Positions 54,343 to 64,000 of a DNA stretch of 64,000 bases are shown here, piece by piece. The stretch is from assembly GCA_944371325.1 (NCBI GenBank), contig CALVXO010000005.1, positions 6,441-70,440 of the forward strand, read 5' to 3'. This stretch comes from an uncultured Bacilli bacterium (GTDB taxonomy: Bacteria > Bacillota_I > Bacilli_A > RF39 > UBA660). The position numbers and the translations under genes are program-made. Each line of letters opens with the position of its first letter. The stretch's first letter is position 1. The notes under the pieces are model-generated. The model did no database searches. It saw nothing but the letters and a program-made list of their open reading frames with translations, and was not told where the DNA came from.

Positions 54343-56295
54343 CTACATTTGAATTGCACTATAGTAACTAAACATTGGAATAACAATTGATAATACTATT
54401 CCACCAACAGTAAATGTTAAGAATAAAATTAAAGCAGGTTCAATAAATGTTTTAATTCTTGTAACCGCATTTCTATGTAATTCCTGATAATAAGCTGAAA
54501 CCTTTTGCATCATTTCAGCTAATTGACCTGTTCTTTCACCAGTTGTAATCATTTCATAAGCTGGAACTGGGAATGCCCAATGATCTTTAAATGCTAATGA
54601 TATTCTTTCACCTTTTGCTAAATTTGTTATTGTATCAAGTATTAACATTTTATAAATTTCGTTATTTGTTATCTTATTTAATATTTCCATACTATCTGTT
54701 ATAAAAACATTATGAGCTAAAAGGGATGCGAATGTTTTTGTAAACATAGTAACCTCATTATATATAATAACATTACCAAATATAGGTGTATGCATTAACA
54801 ACCATTGAATAAATGTTTTAAATGCTTTAACATTTTTGTATAAATAAACAAATACTAAAATAAATGAACAAACTCCTATAATTAAGAATAAATAATTTTT
54901 TTGTAAGAAAGCACTTAAATTCATAACAAATATTGTGATTCCTGGGATTTGTGCACCATCTATTCCTTCATAGATCTTAACAAACTGTGGCACTACCCAT
55001 ACCATAATAAATACAACTGCAGCAATAGCCAAAACGAATATAATTGCTGGATAAGTCATTGCTGTAATCATTTGTTTTCTTGTTTTATCAGTTTCTGTAA
55101 AGTAATCTTCCATATCATCTAATACTTCTGGCAACTCTCCAGTCATTTCAGACGCTTTCACCATATTAATAAATAATCTTGGAAAAGCTTCACCTTGCTT
55201 TTCCATTGCGGTGGAAAAGTTATCTCCCATAGTTAAATCATATATCATAGTTCTAAATATTCGCGAATATGATTTTTTTCTAAATTGATGAGATAATATT
55301 TTTAATGATTCTACTAAAGGAATACCAGCTTTAATATATGTAGATAATTGCGCACAAAAGAATATTAAGTCCCTTGTTTTTATTTTATATCGATTGTTAG
55401 AAGAACCATTACCATATATTCTTTGAATCCATTTATTTGTCTCAATACTGTAAACTTCATTTCCTTCACTTAATAAAAATGAATGAACTTCTACTTTAGA
55501 ATATGCTGGGAAATATCCTTTGATAATTTTACCATTTGGATCTTTAGCAACATATTTATACATAACTTTTTCTTCACTTTTTTCAGCATCGGCACCTTCA
55601 AAATCCAATAATAAAGCTTGTCTATTAATATCTTTTTTATTTTGAGCATTTTTAGCAAATCTATTGTTAGTAAAAATATTTTTTATTTTTTTAGGTATAT
55701 TACCAATTGACATAAACAAGTCGTTAATATGATCTGCAAATTTCTTTTTTTCCAACACAACATTTTCATTAATATAAATATCAGCTTTTCTTTTTTCTTT
55801 AAGTTCTTCTTTTTTCTTTGCAATTGCTTCTTTTTCTTTTTTTCTATTTTCCGCTAATCTCTTTTTATTTTCTTCATCGATTTGTCTATTTCTTTCTCTA
55901 GCTGCAGCTTTCATTTCTTGTTGTAACTGTTGTTTTTCAAGCATTTTATTATTAATTTCGTTTAATTTAATAAATAATCTTGAAATAATTATAATTGGAT
56001 AAACAAAACCGAATACAACATATTTTATAAATAAATATACAAATCTTGAAATAACTACAAAGCCGATAAATGCATATTTCAATAACTTATACCAAAAATA
56101 TGATAAATATAAAAATACATAACTAATAAGTTTTATAAAATAACTAAAAGTTGATACTACTATATCTATTAAAACAAATAAAGTTATAAAGAACCCAACA
56201 TTTACGTATTTTATAAAAGTTATAGTAAAGACAAACAAAAAACGTACCATCTTATATACATAAATAAATGGCAACAAATAAATTGGTTTATTCAA
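54343..56295 (-). CDS. pilC: type IV pilus/T2SS platform protein (GspF/PilC family) with a 244-aa N-terminal extension
   Basis: From aa 245 (MYKYVAKDPNGKIIKGYFPAYSKVEVHSFLLSEG) onward it is a typical two-repeat PilC. The first 110 aa are hydrophobic with the reiterated motif F(I/V)KY(V). Residues 111-175 are a K/E-rich coiled coil. Confidence 0.85.
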   Translation of the reverse strand: MNKPIYLLPFIYVYKMVRFLFVFTITFIKYVNVGFFITLFVLIDIVVSTFSYFIKLISYVFLYLSYFWYKLLKYAFIGFVVISRFVYLFIKYVVFGFVYPIIIISRLFIKLNEINNKMLEKQQLQQEMKAAARERNRQIDEENKKRLAENRKKEKEAIAKKKEELKEKRKADIYINENVVLEKKKFADHINDLFMSIGNIPKKIKNIFTNNRFAKNAQNKKDINRQALLLDFEGADAEKSEEKVMYKYVAKDPNGKIIKGYFPAYSKVEVHSFLLSEGNEVYSIETNKWIQRIYGNGSSNNRYKIKTRDLIFFCAQLSTYIKAGIPLVESLKILSHQFRKKSYSRIFRTMIYDLTMGDNFSTAMEKQGEAFPRLFINMVKASEMTGELPEVLDDMEDYFTETDKTRKQMITAMTYPAIIFVLAIAAVVFIMVWVVPQFVKIYEGIDGAQIPGITIFVMNLSAFLQKNYLFLIIGVCSFILVFVYLYKNVKAFKTFIQWLLMHTPIFGNVIIYNEVTMFTKTFASLLAHNVFITDSMEILNKITNNEIYKMLILDTITNLAKGERISLAFKDHWAFPVPAYEMITTGERTGQLAEMMQKVSAYYQELHRNAVTRIKTFIEPALILFLTFTVGGIVLSIVIPMFSYYSAIQM

Positions 56296-56414: not shown

Positions 56415-56747
56415 ATGAATTTTTATCCTTATTATAATTTTCCTTATACTTCTTTTACACAAGTTCCTAAAGTTGGTGGTTTAAAATCATTATTTGGTGG
56501 AATAAAATGGAGTTCAATATTAAGCGGAACTCAAAAGACATTAAATGTTGTTAATCAAGCAATTCCTATTATTAAACAAGCTGGACCAGTAATAAATAAT
56601 GCAAGAACAATGTTTAGAGTTATGAATGAATTTAACAAAGTTGATTCGCCACAAAATAATACAACTCAAAATAATGTAGTTGTAGAAACAGATAATAAAG
56701 AAAAAATTGAAAAAGTAGAAAATAATGGTCCTGTATTCTTTCAATAA
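56415..56747 (+). CDS. YqfQ-like small protein (tentative)
   Basis: SD AAAGGAGG. LSGTQKTLNVVNQAIPIIKQAGPVINNARTMFRVM resembles the YqfQ block l.ntQKvL...q..P.vqQyGP.v.NlP.m. Confidence 0.45.
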   Translation: MNFYPYYNFPYTSFTQVPKVGGLKSLFGGIKWSSILSGTQKTLNVVNQAIPIIKQAGPVINNARTMFRVMNEFNKVDSPQNNTTQNNVVVETDNKEKIEKVENNGPVFFQ

Positions 56748-56772: not shown

Positions 56773-58569
56773 ACTATCTTGTTTTTTTCTTAATTCAGTA
56801 TTTAATATTTTTTTTCTTAATCTATAACTTAATGGTGTAACTTCTACTAATTCATCATTATTTATATAATCTAAGCATACTTCCAAACTTAATAATCTAG
56901 GTCTTTTTAATACTACTGTATGATCACTACCACTAGCTCTTGTATTAGTTAATTTTTTTCCTTTAACAACATTAACTGCTAAATCATTATCATGATTGTT
57001 TTCTCCTACTATCATGCCTTCATAAACTTCAGCACCAGGTTCAATAAACATAACTCCTCGATCTTCTAATTGGCCTAATGCATAAGCTGTTGCTTTACCG
57101 TTTTCCATAGATACTAAAACACCTTGTTTTCTTTGACCAACCTTTGAACTAGCCAATTTACGATATTCTTTAAAAGTATGATTAATTATACCATATCCTT
57201 TAGTCATTGTCATAAACTCAGTCATAAAGCCAATTAATCCTCTTGAAGGAACTACATAACTTAATCTAACTTGATTATCGTGATTACTCATATTTAACAT
57301 TTCACCATCACGATTACCTAATGCCTCTATTACAGATCCTACATATTCTTCTGGTACTTCTACTAAAACATCTTCAAATGGTTCACATTTTTCACCATCT
57401 ATTTCTTTTATAATTACTTGTGGTTTAGATACCTGAAGTTCAAATCCTTCTCTACGCATATTTTCTATTAAAATAGATAAATGTAATTCACCTCGACCAG
57501 AAACAATAAATGATTCACTATCATTTGGTTCTACTTTTAAGGATACATCTCTTTCTGTTTCTTTATATAATCTTTCTTCTATTTTTCTAGCAGTTAATAG
57601 TTTACCTTCTTTTCCACAAAATGGACTAGTATTAACTCCAAAGGTCATTTGTAATGTTGGTTCATCTATTTTAAGTAATGGTAAAGGTTCTTCCATTCCT
57701 TGTGTACAAACAGTTTCACCAACTTCAATATCTGGTAAACCAGCTATAGCAACTATTTCACCAGCTTTAGCTTCAGTTATCTCAATTCTTTTTAATCCTA
57801 AATAACCATACATCTTTTGAATTCTAAATTGTTTAATAGAACCATCTCTTCTTACACAAGATACTAATTCATTTACTTTTACTTTTCCTCTTTTTACTCT
57901 ACCTATACCAATTCTTCCAACGAAATCATTATAATCTAATAAAGCAGGTTGAAATTGAAATCCACCTTCTATATCAACATTAGGAGCAGGTATATAATTG
58001 ATTATTGCTTCTAATATTGGATTCATTGTTTTTTCTTGTGTTTCTAATTCCGGATGAATACTAGATGTACCATTAATAGCAGATGCATAAATAACAGGGA
58101 AATCTAATTGATCTATATCAGCACCTAATTCAATAAATAAATCTAGCACTTCATCTACTACTTCTTTTGGTCTAGCAGTTGGTTTATCTATTTTATTTAC
58201 TACTACTATTGGTGTTACTCCTGCTTCTAAGGCTTTTTTAAGAACAAATCTAGTTTGTGGCATTGTTCCTTCATATGCATCAACTACTAATAAAACACCT
58301 TCTACCATATTCATTATTCTTTCTACTTCTCCACCAAAATCGGCATGTCCTGGAGTATCTAATATATTTATTCTATATCCATCATAATTTATAGCTGTTG
58401 TTTTAGCTAAAATAGTGATACCTCTTTCTTTTTCAATATCATTAGAATCCATTGAATATGTATTTTCATTTTCTCTAAATGTTCCTGACATTTCTAGCAA
58501 CTTATCTACTAATGTAGTTTTTCCATGATCGACATGTGCTATTATTGCTATATTTCTTATTTTCTCCAT
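56758..58569 (-). CDS. typA: translational GTPase TypA/BipA
   Basis: Motifs IRNIAIIAHVDHGKTTLVD, DTPGHADFGGEV and NKID, with EF-G-like domains. The ATG at 58567-58569 follows SD GGGAG. Confidence 0.95.
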   Translation of the reverse strand: MEKIRNIAIIAHVDHGKTTLVDKLLEMSGTFRENENTYSMDSNDIEKERGITILAKTTAINYDGYRINILDTPGHADFGGEVERIMNMVEGVLLVVDAYEGTMPQTRFVLKKALEAGVTPIVVVNKIDKPTARPKEVVDEVLDLFIELGADIDQLDFPVIYASAINGTSSIHPELETQEKTMNPILEAIINYIPAPNVDIEGGFQFQPALLDYNDFVGRIGIGRVKRGKVKVNELVSCVRRDGSIKQFRIQKMYGYLGLKRIEITEAKAGEIVAIAGLPDIEVGETVCTQGMEEPLPLLKIDEPTLQMTFGVNTSPFCGKEGKLLTARKIEERLYKETERDVSLKVEPNDSESFIVSGRGELHLSILIENMRREGFELQVSKPQVIIKEIDGEKCEPFEDVLVEVPEEYVGSVIEALGNRDGEMLNMSNHDNQVRLSYVVPSRGLIGFMTEFMTMTKGYGIINHTFKEYRKLASSKVGQRKQGVLVSMENGKATAYALGQLEDRGVMFIEPGAEVYEGMIVGENNHDNDLAVNVVKGKKLTNTRASGSDHTVVLKRPRLLSLEVCLDYINNDELVEVTPLSYRLRKKILNTELRKKQDSKKTD

Positions 58570-58633
58570 AAAATCAACTCCCAATCAACTGTGTAATTAT
58601 AACATTTTTATTTTATTTTGTAAAGTTACAAAT

Positions 58634-58660
58634 AAAAATATGTTTTGTTAACATATTTTT
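58634..58660 (-). terminator. strong hairpin terminator ending the five-gene operon
   Basis: A perfect 11-bp stem, AAAAATATGTT with AACATATTTTT, has loop TTGTT and is flanked by U-runs. It overlaps the stop at 58659-58661. Confidence 0.65.
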
Positions 58661-59867
58661 AAATTAAACTAGATTTTGAAACTATAATAACTGGAACTAC
58701 TTTACAACTATCAGTTTTTAAACCTTTATAATATTTTGAATTATTATCATCTATTTTTTGATATTGAAAAGCACCATCATTATATTCAGTATCAATCCAA
58801 TAACAACTATTTGAGATTAAGTAATTAAATTTAGAATTATTAAATTTATAATAACCATTATTATTTATTGCAAAATTTAATTCAGTATTCAAACGTTCTT
58901 GATAATTCAAATTACCAATTATCATATCAGATAAATTTTCTCTTACTAAAACTGAATTATTAACATCTTTAGAAATAACTGGCAATATATCATTCATTTC
59001 TAAAGGTTTTGAAGTAACTTTCCAATTTTTAGTTATTTCATTAATAGTATTATTATAATTTTCATATGTGCTTACATTAAAACTATTATTTAAATCTGGT
59101 AATAACTTAACTGTAGTATCTCCTACCTTATTTCTTGAATCAATTACATAAGTTTTTAAACAAAATGCACTTAATTGATCACAAACTTTATTATTAACTA
59201 CATCATATAAAACAACATCACCTAAATTATAATTTGTATCTGATGATTCATTCGTTATTAGCATTTGTTCAGCTTTAATTTCAATTATCACTTCTAATGA
59301 AGGTCTTATTTCATAATCAGGATTATCTTGTTTTTTTTGTTGTTCTTCCATATAAAATTGATATGCTTTATTTCCCCATTCACTATCTAATTTATCATTA
59401 TTAGAATCAAGTGGCCATGATATAGAAACATTAAATTTGCCACTATCACCATGAGACAAAGCATAATCTTTATCTAAATTCATATTAATATGAAATGGAT
59501 AATCATGCGATAATTTATCTGTTAATTCTTCATTAGAAGCACTATTCAAAGTATCATTAAAAAATCTAACTGATTTAATATTATAACTAATTTGAGCATC
59601 TGAATCACCTAAATTAGCTATATCGACATCTTTTATTTCAGTATCCATGCCTGGATGAATATCTGATAAAGAAATAACTATTTCATTTGAAACAACTTGT
59701 TCACCATTTTTGAATTCAATGTTCCAAGCTTTAATATCAACGTCAACAGTAGCGCTTGATAAACCACTATAAGCAAACCAAGCTAAAGTAATAGAAACAA
59801 AAGAAATTGCAACAAAAAATAGCGACATCAAATTTAATTTCAAATATAATTTATGTTTTCTTTCCAC
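58659..59867 (-). CDS. secreted or membrane-anchored protein with SipW-type signal region (TasA/camelysin-like N-terminal part), 402 aa
   Basis: GTG start 8 nt after SD AAGGAG. The N-terminus is KLNLMSLFFVAISFVSITLAWFAYSGLSSATVDVDIKAW. ISLSDIHPGMDTEIKDVDIANLGDSDAQISY parallels TasA VNLSNLKPGDKLTKDFQFENNGSLAIKE. Lies immediately downstream of sipW. Confidence 0.5.
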   Translation of the reverse strand: MERKHKLYLKLNLMSLFFVAISFVSITLAWFAYSGLSSATVDVDIKAWNIEFKNGEQVVSNEIVISLSDIHPGMDTEIKDVDIANLGDSDAQISYNIKSVRFFNDTLNSASNEELTDKLSHDYPFHINMNLDKDYALSHGDSGKFNVSISWPLDSNNDKLDSEWGNKAYQFYMEEQQKKQDNPDYEIRPSLEVIIEIKAEQMLITNESSDTNYNLGDVVLYDVVNNKVCDQLSAFCLKTYVIDSRNKVGDTTVKLLPDLNNSFNVSTYENYNNTINEITKNWKVTSKPLEMNDILPVISKDVNNSVLVRENLSDMIIGNLNYQERLNTELNFAINNNGYYKFNNSKFNYLISNSCYWIDTEYNDGAFQYQKIDDNNSKYYKGLKTDSCKVVPVIIVSKSSLI

Positions 59868-59886
59868 TGTTACAACTCCTTTTCTT

Positions 59887-60441
59887 TTACGCTTTTTTTC
59901 TTCTTTTTTCTTCTTTTTCTAACATTGTTGTAAGTATTTCAGAACCTATTATATATAAAATTGGAACAAATATTAGGAAAAACATTCCAAATTTTGTGGC
60001 AACTATTTTATATATAAATGATAATATTATAGGTTTATAAATAATTTTACCATAAACTTGACTCTCATAAACTATTGGGTCTGGGGTATCATTTGCAATA
60101 CCTTGTGTATGAAAAATATATTTTCCATCTTCATCTTGTTCAATATTAATAACCTCATGAGTTACAACTTTTCCTGCTAAAGTACCTTGCTTTCCTAAAT
60201 ATGAAATAGCATCACCAACTTCAATTTTTGAAGGATCAATTTCTTTAGCAATTAAAACATCACCTATTTTATATTTAGGGTCCATACTTCCAGATACAAC
60301 CGTAAACATTCTAAAACTTAAAAATGATATTTTATTATTACTAAATCTTTGTAAAGCAACTACTAACAAAAATAAAATAATAAAAATTGCAACAAATATA
60401 TTTAAAATTGTTTTAATTATTTTAAAAGTTTTATTATTCAT
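59887..60441 (-). CDS. sipW: signal peptidase I, SipW (ER/archaeal) type
   Basis: VVSGSMDPKYKIGD (catalytic Ser) and VVTHEV (His instead of the Lys found in bacterial-type SPases). Has an N-terminal and a C-terminal TM helix. Confidence 0.85.
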   Translation of the reverse strand: MNNKTFKIIKTILNIFVAIFIILFLLVVALQRFSNNKISFLSFRMFTVVSGSMDPKYKIGDVLIAKEIDPSKIEVGDAISYLGKQGTLAGKVVTHEVINIEQDEDGKYIFHTQGIANDTPDPIVYESQVYGKIIYKPIILSFIYKIVATKFGMFFLIFVPILYIIGSEILTTMLEKEEKRRKKA

Positions 60442-60450
60442 ACTAAACCA

Positions 60451-61575
60451 CTACAAGTACTCTTGTGCCCTTTCTAAGTATTCTTCCATCGCATTTTTAA
60501 ATTTTTTCTTAACATCATCTATACCAACTAATCGTTCACTCTTATCTTTTTTTATCTCTTTAGCAATCATATTTAATAATTCTTCATCAGTTATTTCTAT
60601 ACCAGCACTTAATAATAAATCAACAATTCTTCTAATTTCTTCTTTTAACAATAAAACTGCATTTTTAGCCATTTTTTTCTTTTGTTCTCTTTTAGAAGGT
60701 ACTAAAGAATCTAAAACTAAATAATCTATTAAGAATGAATGATCCAAAAATCCTTTTAATACATCATTACCATTATCAGTATCATTTTCCTTAGTATCTT
60801 CATCATCTTCAAATTTTAATAAATATTCCCACAATTTAACTGCTATTCTAAAATTTGGATTCTTTAAAATGATATTAGTTTTTTTAATTGGTGGTTTTAT
60901 AAATGATACATGCGCTTTATCTAAAGCTTTATACATTTCACTTCTTTGCCAACTAGAGATATATTCTTTAATTCGTTTAATTCTTGCTTTGATTTTTTTT
61001 ATTTCATCTTTTATTTTTTTATCAACTTTAGCAGTTGGTAAAGTTTCTGAAGTAACTTTCAATTCGATATCTACTTTTTCAAAATCAGTTACTGTTTTTG
61101 CTGAATACTCTAATACTTTATCATCACTTAATTCAAAATTATTAAGTAATTCTTCCTTTTCTAAAACAAATTTTAACAAAGAATCTATTAGAGTGTAGAG
61201 AAACCTATTTTCATATATATTATAGGTTTCTTCATTTCTAACATCTAATATTTTTTTTGGTTCAACACTTTTTGTTTTCTTATCAATTTTATTAATATAT
61301 TCAGTATGTTTACTTAAATCTTTAATACTTGCCACGGTAATTTTTTTTGATTTTTCGATTTTAACAGTATTTTCTTCTCTAATAAGTGCGATTTTAGGTT
61401 GTCTTACAATAATATCGATATATGGACAAGCTTCTTCTATTATATCAACCCAATCAAAAGATACTAAATTTCCTTCATAATCAGATTTAAAAAACATTTC
61501 AGAACCTAATTTTTTTAGAAATATATCGGTTTTATCTTTTACTTCTTTTTCAACTTCACATTTAAAATTGTCCAT
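60451..61575 (-). CDS. McrC N-terminal/DUF2357-like partner protein with no recognisable nuclease motif (tentative)
   Basis: Blocks DWVDIIEEACPYIDIIVRQPK, ETYNIYENRFLYTLIDSL and ILKNPNFRIAVKLWEYL resemble DUF2357. The central and C-terminal parts are K/E-rich helices. I find no D...(D/E)xK core. SD AGGGG, 17 nt after the GTPase gene stop. Confidence 0.4.
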   Translation of the reverse strand: MDNFKCEVEKEVKDKTDIFLKKLGSEMFFKSDYEGNLVSFDWVDIIEEACPYIDIIVRQPKIALIREENTVKIEKSKKITVASIKDLSKHTEYINKIDKKTKSVEPKKILDVRNEETYNIYENRFLYTLIDSLLKFVLEKEELLNNFELSDDKVLEYSAKTVTDFEKVDIELKVTSETLPTAKVDKKIKDEIKKIKARIKRIKEYISSWQRSEMYKALDKAHVSFIKPPIKKTNIILKNPNFRIAVKLWEYLLKFEDDEDTKENDTDNGNDVLKGFLDHSFLIDYLVLDSLVPSKREQKKKMAKNAVLLLKEEIRRIVDLLLSAGIEITDEELLNMIAKEIKKDKSERLVGIDDVKKKFKNAMEEYLERAQEYL

Positions 61576-61592
61576 ATAATATCAACCCCTAA

Positions 61593-63119
61593 CTATATGC
61601 TTTTCTTAAGATTTTGTAAATATGCAATACATTCTTTCATTACATCTTTACCAAATTTTTTATTTAAATATGAAATAAATGGATCAATTTCATCTCTTAA
61701 TAAAGCAACACTTAATTGATCAAATTTCCTTAATATTTTTTTAGCAATAAAGTAATCAATTGCTTCTATTTCTTTACCACCACAAGCTACATAAACAGGA
61801 GTAAATACCCCTAATTGTTTCATAATACGATTACCAAAAGCAATTCTAAAATGTTCAATAACGTAATCATCTATTTCTCCAACATAATTTAATCCTTTAT
61901 CAGATAATGGATATTTTTCAACCGCATCAGCAAATAAACTGTCTAAATAACTTGAATTAATTTTTACTACATCTTGTTCACGACATTTAAATGGATCTAC
62001 TTTAGTATTAATATCAATAGGCATTGCTCTATCATATACTTTGTCAGTTACCATAAATGTTGAATCATCATTATTAATAGTACCAATATACCAAATATTA
62101 CCAGGTAATTTAATTTTTCCTTTAATTAATTTTTTAGGATCATCTGGCCAAGCACTAGGTACTAAATCTACTAACCATTCATCACGACTAGGCATTTCAA
62201 GAATTGATAATAAGTCTGCAAAATAATATTCAACACGAGCTAAGTTCATTTCATCTAGAATAATTGTATGAACGTCATCATCAAATGAAGCAGCATATAT
62301 TTCACCTAAAGCTTTAGTTTCATTGAATTTTTTAGTAAATTCATTGAAATATCCTAAGAAATCTGATTTATCTCTCCAAGATGGTTCAACAGAAGATACA
62401 CAAGCATCCATTCCCATAAATTTTCCCCAAGCATATGCTAAGGAAGTTTTACCTGTACCAGAGATACCTTGTAAAATAATTAACTTACCACAAGCTAAAC
62501 CACCAAAGAAAGGTCTTAAAATTGTAAAGTCATAATATAAATGTAATTGACTAGCTGCAAAGCATCTAAAATCATCAATTAATTGAGCTAAAGTTGTATC
62601 ATTTTGATATTTTTTAATTTTATAACCTTCAAATTGTTCATCAATAGCCACCAATTTAGGAAATCTAATTCCTTTAATTGCTTCATCTTCTTCAGGTTTT
62701 TCTTCTTCTTTGTTTTCTTCAGTTTCTTCTTCAGGATTAATGCCTAATTGAGAAACTTTCATAGCCATTAATTCTTCTCTTTCTTTCATTAACTTTCTAA
62801 CTTGATCATTTAAATTGCCAATCTCAGTCAACAATTCATCTTTACTTAAATTATTATTTAATTTTCTTATTATTTTTTTAACTAATAAGAAGATTAATAA
62901 TGCTATTAATAAGACAATTATTATTAAACAAACAACACACATAACAACGAATACTTTTTCATTGCCATTAAAGCTGTCTTTATAACTTTCAATTATTTTA
63001 GCGTAATCACTAAAACTAAACATTTGTTTAATACCATTAATAAATCCTTTAAAGGCGTTAAACAATCCATCAAAAAAGATAGATATAAATTCGTAAAAAA
63101 ATCTCAAAAATGTATTCAT
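61593..63119 (-). CDS. McrB-family (AAA_5) GTPase with N-terminal TM helix, coiled coil and acidic linker
   Basis: Walker A is LQGISGTGKTS. SVEPSWRDKSDFLGYFN...TIILDEMNLARVEYYFADLLSILE is the McrB-type Walker B region. GTINNDDS corresponds to the McrB MNTAD (NxxD) motif. TM helix VFVVMCVVCLIIIVLLIALLIFLLV is followed by KKIIRK. Confidence 0.7.
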   Translation of the reverse strand: MNTFLRFFYEFISIFFDGLFNAFKGFINGIKQMFSFSDYAKIIESYKDSFNGNEKVFVVMCVVCLIIIVLLIALLIFLLVKKIIRKLNNNLSKDELLTEIGNLNDQVRKLMKEREELMAMKVSQLGINPEEETEENKEEEKPEEDEAIKGIRFPKLVAIDEQFEGYKIKKYQNDTTLAQLIDDFRCFAASQLHLYYDFTILRPFFGGLACGKLIILQGISGTGKTSLAYAWGKFMGMDACVSSVEPSWRDKSDFLGYFNEFTKKFNETKALGEIYAASFDDDVHTIILDEMNLARVEYYFADLLSILEMPSRDEWLVDLVPSAWPDDPKKLIKGKIKLPGNIWYIGTINNDDSTFMVTDKVYDRAMPIDINTKVDPFKCREQDVVKINSSYLDSLFADAVEKYPLSDKGLNYVGEIDDYVIEHFRIAFGNRIMKQLGVFTPVYVACGGKEIEAIDYFIAKKILRKFDQLSVALLRDEIDPFISYLNKKFGKDVMKECIAYLQNLKKSI

Positions 63120-63122
63120 AAA

Positions 63123-64000
63123 CTACTCTCCCCAATAACTTCCTATTTTACTTGCTATATCATCATAAGCAATTTTATTGTGTAATTCCTCTTTAATTGA
63201 TGATAAAACATCAATCGATTCAAACATTTTCCCTTTTACTCTTTTATCGATAAATATGTATTCCATTGCTTCAACAATTCCTTGATCTTTTGCTTTAACT
63301 GCTGAAGTTTGTAAATCAACGGCAAATCTATATCCATCTTTAATTAATGATTTTATAACCTTTTTATTCTTTGATAATTCTTCATATTGTGCTAAAACAA
63401 TAATATTATTTTTAGCATATTCATCACCAAACAAATTAAATATTTTATCTAATTTATTAGATTTAGTGTATAAACTTTCTGGTATGTAGAATATATATTT
63501 TTTATTAAAATCAGCATTCAACATATCTTTAACAACTTGTACTAATAATAATGTTAACAAAACTTCAATTTTATCTTCAGCAACAATACCATCATAATAT
63601 GTTTTATCAACAATATAATCACTATATACCTTGCTAAAATTAATATTATGATTTAATTCAACTGCGTAAGTATTTTTAATTGATAAACTATTATATTTTA
63701 ATTCAAATAAACTTGTTTCTAATTTTTCAATTGCTTCTTTAACAACTGATTTATAAGTTCTTTGAATTTTTAGTATTTTACTAATCATAGAATTCATTGT
63801 TTTAGGATCGACTTCAGTTCCAATTAATTTAACCATCTTATTTTTATAAGTTTGTTTTTTTATTTTAGTATCATCTATAACTAAATATGTATGTTCTAAA
63901 TGCATAACCAAAGTAAATATATTAGTGTATTTTTTTACTTTTTCACTATATTTATTATCAGTTCCTTTGTATGCTTTAATCATTTCTTGAGCAGCTTCTT
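63123..64000 (-). CDS. hypothetical protein, first visible gene of the operon (N-terminus may lie beyond the window); weak EAL-like pattern
   Basis: The frame stays open to the window edge. The ATG at 63981-63983 has no clear SD. The stop lies 3 nt before the next ATG. Blocks NIIVLAQYEEL, IKSLIKDGYRFAVDL and MEYIFIDKRV loosely parallel EAL-domain blocks lvlEitE, L...G..ialDDFG and d.iKiD. Confidence 0.45.
   Translation of the reverse strand, partial: EAAQEMIKAYKGTDNKYSEKVKKYTNIFTLVMHLEHTYLVIDDTKIKKQTYKNKMVKLIGTEVDPKTMNSMISKILKIQRTYKSVVKEAIEKLETSLFELKYNSLSIKNTYAVELNHNINFSKVYSDYIVDKTYYDGIVAEDKIEVLLTLLLVQVVKDMLNADFNKKYIFYIPESLYTKSNKLDKIFNLFGDEYAKNNIIVLAQYEELSKNKKVIKSLIKDGYRFAVDLQTSAVKAKDQGIVEAMEYIFIDKRVKGKMFESIDVLSSIKEELHNKIAYDDIASKIGSYWGE

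Follow-up and report, generated by a model that had tools for sequence, protein, structure and literature searches.

McrBC is the textbook GTP-driven restriction motor, and a membrane-bound branch of it that has neither a DNA reader nor a nuclease would show that the motor has been reused outside defence. The locus described here raises the question of whether such a branch exists and what it might do. It lies towards one end of a 64,000-nucleotide stretch of DNA (hereafter the window; G+C ~24%) from an uncultured Bacilli bacterium (contig CALVXO010000005.1, positions 6,441 to 70,440), and its central gene encodes a McrB-like GTPase of 508 amino acids (aa). An earlier note on this DNA had proposed that the DNA reader of the GTPase is replaced by a membrane anchor, a coiled coil and an acidic linker, which argues against a role in DNA-scanning restriction, and all the points of that proposal that can be tested agree with our data. 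We are confident that the protein is the GTPase of a McrBC-like pair that lacks a nuclease, of the type named CoCoPALM by Bell et al. 2024 (PMC11090510), and that its role is one other than restriction. As the overall best explanation we lean towards a membrane-tethered, GTP-driven, McrBC-like motor or switch for the processing or assembly of secreted surface proteins.

Membrane module and GTPase core

In a scan of one genome per species, 80 loci were examined out of 394 confirmed matching stretches, and alignment statistics on the GTPase orthologues were derived from 80 sequences, 79 from these loci plus the window protein. The orthologues are full-length in 80/80 loci, at 54-98% identity, and come from uncultured gut metagenome-assembled genomes whose records are labelled mostly as Bacilli, Tenericutes or Mollicutes, with some Clostridia or Muribaculaceae. 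More distant relatives were collected by an exhaustive search of 1.84 billion representatives, which returned 8250 at E ≤ 1e-3; the best 126 full-length representatives of these 8250 were surveyed for architecture and motifs, and 66 were used for a Pfam scan and for a profile search of the PDB. The source contig (364,968 bp) is referred to as L081, and the closest other genome, at 93% nucleotide identity, as L001.

The strongly hydrophobic segment at residues 56-80, VFVVMCVVCLIIIVLLIALLIFLLV, is followed directly by KKIIRK, as the earlier note had described, and in the window protein its 19-residue Kyte-Doolittle (KD) mean is 3.84. The segment is found in 80/80 orthologues (maximum KD mean 3.45, minimum 2.55), in all of which it behaves as a transmembrane (TM) anchor and not as a buried soluble helix. 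On average 4.7 Lys/Arg residues occur in the 12 residues after the TM helix as compared to 0.64 before it, and because of this positive-inside signal the GTPase is placed in the cytoplasm, an orientation that had already been deduced for the window protein. Independent support comes from the architecture of two relatives, P0128 and P0131, in which a signal peptide, an extracytoplasmic domain of ~250 aa, a Pro/Thr-rich linker, a TM helix and the sequence RRRKKK precede the same core. The layout of these two proteins resembles that of a transmembrane receptor, with an ectodomain that has no fold assignment.

The TM helix is preceded by an F/G-rich helix (helix 1), which the earlier note took to be part of an amphipathic N-terminus. 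The helix itself stands, but its character is less settled than that description implied. Its mean conservation is 0.62, versus 0.48 for the TM helix; its 19-residue KD mean is 1.1 in the window protein and 0.46-2.10 in the orthologues, and many relatives have a clear, full TM helix in its place. Since helix 1 outconserves the TM helix and is transmembrane in many relatives, it may be amphipathic or it may be a weak first membrane helix, that is a second membrane-embedded segment giving a hairpin with both termini inside.

On the cytoplasmic side, the heptad-like stretch that had been noticed in the window protein spans residues 93-121, and its a/d positions L96, I/V100, L103, V107, L110 and I/L117 are conserved or invariant. 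The residues E99, L103, V107, L110, M120, K121, S123, L125, G126 and P129 are invariant in the coiled-coil region, and a profile of residues 1-150 matched designed coiled coils over residues 78-114 (E=1.8e-7). The acidic run that follows was also borne out: residues 130-150 of the window protein contain 12 Asp/Glu and 3 Lys/Arg, and the corresponding linker region (residues 122-152) of the orthologues, although variable in sequence and in length (27-46 aa), is always acidic, with a net charge of -4 to -12. No DNA- or RNA-binding Pfam domain was found in the window GTPase or in the 66 representative relatives.

The core was compared with E. coli McrB, whose structures were matched at E=7e-4 by the single sequence and at 6e-6 by the 66-sequence profile; they are the sole PDB matches at E ≤ 0.01, with Walker A, Walker B and the signature motif in register. 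Sequence comparison thus indicates a homology to McrB that is real but distant. The Walker A (GISGTGKT, residues 218-225) and Walker B (IILDEMN, residues 286-292) motifs are intact, as previously read. The earlier assignment to AAA_5 was right about the kind of core, which is McrB-type, but the Pfam AAA_5 model, matched by 37/66 relatives, does not match the window protein at E ≤ 0.01. The PADLOC model PDC-M26A matches the core at 1.4e-36. Across 66-126 representatives the residues G218, G221, G223, K224, D289, N292, N349, D351, R364, G429 and R431 are invariant. The motif NNDD had been equated with the NTAD of E. coli McrB, and D352 does lie opposite the Asp of NTAD without a gap, but it is only the majority residue among the 126 representatives, whereas the invariant positions are N349 and D351. 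By sequence the signature is the variant 'NxD followed by D/E', with no conserved NxxD, and NxD followed by D or E is what defines a separate branch of McrB GTPases in Bell et al. 2024 (PMC11090510). The NTPase is apparently catalytically intact and under strong constraint, as judged from these motifs and from the substitution rates given below.

Three kinds of N-terminus were distinguished among the best 126 relatives: one or two TM helices, which is the arrangement of the closest relatives, about four TM helices, and no TM helix with 400-500 aa of highly charged, CoCoNuT-like sequence. The core phylogeny against CoCoNuT-type clades, which the earlier note had proposed, was carried out as a rough neighbour-joining tree, midpoint-rooted and calculated without support values; it separates TM from no-TM architectures, and the architecture classes form near-pure clades (32/34, 41/42, and 30 plus 18). 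The no-TM clades of CoCoNuT and PDC-M26 type neighbour the clade of the window protein. A one-TM relative with 34% identity is still flanked by secreted proteins of our families c8 and c6 (described below) and by a SipW peptidase. The other membrane-anchored clades (loci L083, L084 and L086; relatives P0162, P0134 and P0144) are arranged differently: the four-TM relatives form two-gene modules with a 663-aa partner, and the two-TM relatives form McrB-McrC-McrB tandems beside giant leucine-rich repeat or transglutaminase-core proteins, in both cases without SipW.

The partner and the surrounding operon

The GTPase gene begins with ATG, 6 nt downstream of a Shine-Dalgarno-like run, GGGGAGAG, and 3 nt after the stop codon of the preceding gene; 17 nt past its own stop codon starts the gene of a 374-aa McrC-like partner (Table 1). 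The partner matches Pfam DUF2357 (PF09823, the McrC N-terminal domain) at 4.2e-11 (43 bits, cut-off 23.3). An alignment of 37 orthologues has two invariant motifs, YEN(R) at 121-123 and PPIKKTNxILKNxNF at 228-242; over its last 120 aa the protein shows little conservation and no D...(D/E)xK motif. A profile of the 37 sequences retrieved neither McrC nor a nuclease from the PDB. An AlphaFold2 (AF2) model, calculated from a shallow alignment of homologues 65-100% identical, is of low confidence, with a mean predicted local distance difference test score (pLDDT) of 57.6; it depicts a protein that would be helical except for a β-hairpin at 154-177, flanked by long helices at 118-145 and 181-210, and all-helical beyond residue 181. 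A Foldseek search with this low-confidence model gave no match. Neither the partner nor the protein encoded upstream of the GTPase matches any PADLOC model, and no nuclease or nucleic-acid-binding Pfam domain was detected in any of the locus proteins tested. We conclude, with moderate confidence, that the partner probably lacks a nuclease.

The two genes are part of a block whose order, EAL-like / McrB-like / McrC-like / SipW / secreted protein, is kept in essentially all 80 loci, with variable outer flanks and with intergenic gaps of 4, 15.5 and 4 nt (medians across genomes). No methyltransferase or restriction genes are adjacent at the loci examined. The context is a conserved secretion or surface-protein operon and not a defence island. 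The wider cluster adds signal-anchor families that we label c1, c5, c6, c7, c8 and c10, further SipW peptidases and a 530-aa protein, c9. The source genome has c1, c8, c9 and three c6 copies on the upstream side of the block, whereas they are downstream in most other genomes, so that the two halves of the cluster are permuted and still adjacent. Beyond the window end (L081, 1-10000) we noted secreted proteins of 177 aa and 203 aa (opposite strand), c8 and a 47-aa open reading frame (ORF), together with three tandem c6 paralogues (414, 441 and 348 aa) and a 534-aa c9, for none of which was there a Pfam family. The gene for FtsY, the signal recognition particle receptor, occurs a few kb upstream of the cluster in L039, L040, L049, L050, L051 and L053.

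Selection was assessed against the two closest genomes, L001 and L002, as the ratio of nonsynonymous to synonymous substitution rates (dN/dS). Of the genes in the block, that of the GTPase is conserved best (dN/dS 0.03-0.04), and at these values a decaying pseudogene was rejected. The secreted 402-aa protein is the fastest-evolving, at 0.17-0.47, or 0.17-0.32 in the comparison with these two genomes.

Two of the block genes encode signal-peptidase domains. The 184-aa peptidase matches TIGR02228, the archaeal/ER-type signal peptidase I family, at 7.2e-23 (81 bits vs a cut-off of 51.85) and the SipW model at 4.3e-19. Across the 80 loci, at least one peptidase-domain gene with the GSM catalytic-serine motif was found in 67, and two or three in 40. 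The protein encoded upstream of the GTPase, 680 aa long in L081 and in L001, consists of a SipW-type signal-peptidase domain, a TM helix, a Lys/Glu-rich linker and a degenerate C-terminal EAL-fold domain; its N-terminal half matches Peptidase_S24 at 7.8e-6. The EAL-like protein is fused to a peptidase domain in at least 29/77 genomes. Long fusions of this kind (711-801 aa) in L022, L023, L026, L031 and L035 have no GSM motif, and because of this their peptidase domain may be inactive.

The fold of the C-terminal domain was recognized from an AF2 model of the fragment in the window (pLDDT 82.9). The best 50 Foldseek matches in the PDB are all EAL domains, among them Bd1971, FimX, LapD and RocR, with a best E of 7.5e-6 and TM-scores, normalised to the query, of 0.31-0.48; there is no Pfam EAL match. 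The catalytic signature of EAL enzymes (the EAL Glu, DDFGTG and KxD) is not present. Among 28 homologues the position of the EAL glutamate varies, as mapped by eye from secondary structure and not by residue-level structural alignment, and the invariant residues lie instead in HNxxFSKxYSxY...AED.

The secreted neighbours carry signal anchors that end in an invariant or near-invariant AWF. In the 402-aa protein of the block the corresponding residues A29, W30 and F31 are invariant or nearly so in 34 orthologues. Its N-terminal ~200 aa are shared with distant orthologues (L036-L080) of ~200 aa, and its C-terminal ~200 aa are clade-specific. The SipW-cognate signal model TIGR04088 matches 7/28 members of c6 (best 2.5e-5), and the one member that was scored singly reached 18.1 bits versus a cut-off of 19. 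The secreted proteins, the families c9, c10, c11 and c12 and the partners of the two-TM and four-TM relatives all went unmatched in Pfam and NCBIfam, and profiles of the 402-aa and c6 families gave no match in the PDB. Homology of the secreted neighbours to the TasA-like jelly roll or to Peptidase_M73 was sought in the same way, and with no Pfam, NCBIfam or PDB sequence match a TasA-like identity was not adopted.

The operon ends at an AT-rich hairpin, which is followed by the promoter of typA, with a near-consensus extended -10 element (promoter scan 11/12). It is also here, at 58631, that nucleotide homology to L001 stops, and the end of the operon is thus a synteny breakpoint as well. The genes typA, pilC and pilD were considered as members of the system and rejected: they have their own promoter after the hairpin and are absent downstream in 80/80 other genomes. 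In this part of the window the PilC/T2SSF homologue (54343-56295, minus strand) has an N-terminal extension of ~130 aa of F/Y/I-rich hydrophobic segments plus a ~70-aa K/E-rich stretch, a style of hydrophobic sequence and charged linker that recurs in the McrB-like protein and in the SipW/EAL-like fusion, and a small ORF of the YqfQ family (56415-56747, plus strand) lies between typA and pilC. Nearly all genes of the window are on the minus strand, and the GC skew is strongly negative throughout.

The operon is carried by uncultured gut Bacilli of humans, ruminants and chickens. Contigs from a chicken-gut metatranscriptome (X1), 90-99% identical to the window, span the whole operon (window 58136-63742) and suggest, as weak evidence, that it is transcribed in vivo by a related strain.

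Table 1. Features of the locus, with positions in the window.
Feature	Position	Strand	Basis
Operon boundary: AT-rich hairpin, then typA promoter (TTTACA-17-TGnTATAAT)	58596-58660	-	Sequence, promoter scan
Secreted protein, 402 aa; N-terminal signal anchor ending in AWF (SipW-cognate-like)	58659..59867	-	34 orthologues
SipW-type (archaeal/ER-type) signal peptidase I, 184 aa; SGSMDP catalytic motif, C-terminal TM helix	59887..60441	-	TIGR02228
McrC-like partner, 374 aa: DUF2357, long helical/hairpin insertion, predicted helical C-terminal region	60451..61575	-	Pfam, AF2
McrB-like (NxD-type) P-loop GTPase gene, CoCoPALM 'McrB' subunit, 508 aa	61593..63119	-	ORF list
McrB-type AAA+ core and lid, residues 151-508	61596..62669	-	Alignment to E. 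coli McrB
FGNR	61827-61838	-	Sequence
Candidate arginine finger, DKVYDRA	62025-62045	-	Sequence
NxD signature, TINNDDS, residues 347-353	62061-62081	-	Sequence
Walker B, IILDEMN, residues 286-292	62244-62264	-	Sequence
Walker A, GISGTGKT, residues 218-225	62445-62468	-	Sequence
Acidic linker of low conservation, residues 130-150	62670..62732	-	Sequence
Coiled coil, residues 93-129: ~3.5 heptads, then invariant AMKVSQLGxxP	62733..62843	-	Alignment
KKIIRK, residues 81-86, directly after TM helix	62862-62879	-	Sequence
TM helix, residues 56-80	62880..62954	-	Kyte-Doolittle, orthologue alignment
Helix 1, residues 1-34, F/G-rich, MxTFxRFxYEFxSxFFxG...GxxxG	63018..63119	-	Alignment
Upstream gene, 3' part, at least 286 codons, cut by window end (ORF 63123..63983)	63123..64000	-	680 aa in source contig

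Proposed role and its rivals

In light of the conserved surface-protein operon, a role in the biogenesis of a surface structure, and not in DNA restriction, is the most likely one; that the role lies outside restriction we infer from the sequence and its context. Helix 1 and a single strong TM helix hold the GTPase in the cytoplasmic membrane, with its coiled coil, linker and AAA+ core in the cytoplasm, and its gene would be co-transcribed with the DUF2357 partner, the SipW-type peptidase, the EAL-fold/peptidase fusion and the secreted protein. Six subunits would form a ring, as in McrBC, which the DUF2357 partner would plug, stimulating the hydrolysis cycle, and six coiled-coil/TM legs in the membrane would take the place of the flexible, DNA-holding N-terminal arms of McrBC. 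Changes in the ring driven by GTP could then be passed to partners in the membrane, the SipW peptidases and/or the signal-anchored subunits, and would gate or power the steps by which these are processed, released or assembled into a surface structure. For the EAL-fold domain we think a role like that of LapD or FimX probable, as a receptor or adaptor in the cytoplasm. How in particular the motor or switch would operate is offered tentatively, as the less secure part of the proposal. The most far-reaching version, in which the McrBC motor has been exapted into a GTP-driven membrane machine for SipW-dependent surface fibres under the control of a degenerate EAL receptor-peptidase fusion, in a large lineage of uncultured, low-GC gut Bacilli, is doubtful, although if true it would add a further class to type IV pili, sortase pili and the chaperone-usher pathway as ways of building a fibre or pilus. 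The operon probably specifies a major surface structure of the organisms that carry it. Almost none of its proteins has a family assignment, and a restriction motor reused in this way would bear on how AAA+ rings couple to membranes.

Several points weigh against a GTP-driven machine for surface proteins. The proposed job is without precedent, in that, to our knowledge, no report has TasA fibre assembly in B. subtilis depending on a cytoplasmic NTPase. No similarity of the secreted proteins to TasA, to pilins or to solved structures could be detected, and to speak of a 'fibre' or 'pilus' is a guess. The EAL-like domain is without canonical catalytic residues, and its ligand binding is only putative. 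We infer each of the steps from ring formation through GTP hydrolysis to the coupling with SipW, and the probable absence of a nuclease rests on sequence conservation and on a model of low confidence (pLDDT 57.6). The nearest other membrane-anchored clades, with two and four TM helices, are modules of two to four genes without SipW and look like accessory or defence modules. Defence is also the predicted function of the wider NxD family, CoCoNuT among it (PMC11090510), and of the PADLOC candidate PDC-M26, whose A model matches the GTPase core. The metatranscriptome contigs are assembled and carry no strand information, and DNA carry-over could account for them.

The strongest rival draws on several of these points. 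The locus could encode a membrane-linked abortive-infection or defence module in which the GTPase and its partner sense an invader, perhaps a phage using the neighbouring surface structure as a receptor, with the hydrophobic N-terminus serving as a holin-like effector that damages the membrane. Many defence systems use TM effectors, and the two-TM and four-TM relatives of the GTPase do occur in small modules of variable context; the nearest named relatives, CoCoNuT and PDC-M26A (the 1.4e-36 match), are predicted defence systems (PMC11090510). In a Pfam scan of the N-terminal 150 aa of 35 orthologues, 14/35 fragments did match a holin family, but below threshold (best E 0.01), and other bitopic families score as well or better, DUF6377 matching 29/35. 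A fixed genomic context, and a GTPase that is the most conserved gene at a dN/dS of ~0.03, are not what is typical of defence genes; no PADLOC model recognizes the McrC-like partner, and a scan of viral contigs with single-protein patterns, which are sensitive to close relatives only, found no relative of the GTPase. On balance we consider a defence module improbable.

A still less probable reading is that the GTPase performs a membrane housekeeping task unrelated to its neighbours, for instance in the divisome through an FtsB/FtsL-like module, and that its synteny with SipW merely reflects lineage history. Bell et al. call the N-terminus FtsB-homologous (PMC11090510), strong purifying selection would fit, and FtsL was matched by 5/35 of the N-terminal fragments, with a best E of 0.0028. 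These FtsL matches are all sub-threshold, however, and when FtsB/DivIC homology was sought with Pfam in the protein, in the 66 relatives and in the 35 fragments, none reached threshold. Lineage history also fits poorly with outer flanks that were rearranged repeatedly while the block remained intact and its permuted halves adjacent, with an EAL-like neighbour that many genomes encode as one polypeptide with a SipW-type peptidase domain, and with a 34%-identical relative that retains SipW and secreted-protein neighbours.

An ordinary type IV, McrBC-like restriction system with a DNA-binding domain and a nuclease that have diverged beyond recognition, as the core homology to E. coli McrB and the DUF2357 partner directly downstream might suggest, has almost nothing left in its favour and is largely refuted already, given that the N-terminal 150 aa are a conserved TM and coiled-coil module and not a globular domain, that the 66 relatives have no DNA- or RNA-binding domain, that the partner has no conserved acidic/lysine nuclease motif and a C-terminus predicted to be all-helical, and that no methyltransferase or restriction genes are adjacent.

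Comparison with known systems

With E. coli McrBC (PDB 6HZ4, 6UT6, 7VSR) the locus shares a core in which Walker A, Walker B, the sensor-1 Asn and a candidate arginine finger are in register, and a partner with the McrC N-terminal (DUF2357) domain. It differs in that a membrane anchor replaces the N-terminal DNA-binding domain, the signature is NxD and not NxxD, the partner has no detectable PD-(D/E)xK nuclease, and the neighbouring genes form a secretion operon instead of restriction-modification genes. CoCoNuT (CnuB/CnuC) and PDC-M26 belong to the same NxD branch and also have coiled coils attached to the GTPase, but the CoCoNuT GTPases carry 400-500 aa of soluble coiled coil and no TM helix, as compared to ~30 aa and a membrane anchor here. 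CoCoNuT is, moreover, always linked to HEPN or other nucleases (PMC11090510), whereas no nuclease was found in any protein of the window locus tested. As for PDC-M26, only the PDC-M26A model matches, and that of its partner is missing.

The fibre operons tapA-sipW-tasA of B. subtilis and sipW-bsaA-bsaB-bsaC of C. perfringens likewise place a SipW-type peptidase beside several secreted proteins. We know of no NTPase, DUF2357 or EAL-like protein in the B. subtilis operon. The gene list of the C. perfringens operon has none either, and the signal peptides of the SipW fibre operons end, like those described here, in a TasA-like aromatic motif (PMC11580942).

LapD, which works with the protease LapG, and FimX, which works with PilZ and the type IV pilus ATPase, are degenerate EAL receptors and are among the best structural matches of the EAL-like domain. 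The EAL-like protein of the operon is without canonical catalytic residues, is membrane-tethered and is joined to an extracytoplasmic protease domain, and in this its logic resembles that of the LapD-LapG pair, inside-out control of the cleavage of surface proteins. Unlike LapD and FimX, it lacks GGDEF and HAMP domains and is not recognized as EAL from its sequence, and its protease is a fused signal peptidase instead of a separate periplasmic cysteine protease.

The closest counterpart is CoCoPALM, the name given by Bell et al. 2024 to this architecture in one paragraph, with the analysis deferred; NxD GTPases with a TM helix and a coiled coil are said there to associate with proteins of the signal-peptidase family, to have coiled coils on both subunits and to have an FtsB-homologous N-terminus (PMC11090510). 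We found no follow-up on CoCoPALM in a literature search. Three of the four features are present here, namely the NxD GTPase, the N-terminal TM helix and coiled coil, and the association with a signal peptidase. As to the fourth, a coiled coil on the McrC homologue, the low-confidence AF2 model of the partner offers the two long helices on either side of its hairpin as candidates; the FtsB homology was not reproduced with Pfam models, and nothing is demonstrably different. The window GTPase is thus a member of a class that has already been named, and the class itself is not new. What is new with respect to Bell et al. is the partner without a detectable nuclease, the SipW/archaeal type of the peptidases, the EAL-fold/peptidase fusion as a core component, the AWF signal anchors of the secreted neighbours, the strict synteny, the strong constraint and the three architecture clades, and through this locus the uncharacterised CoCoPALM systems become open to concrete tests.

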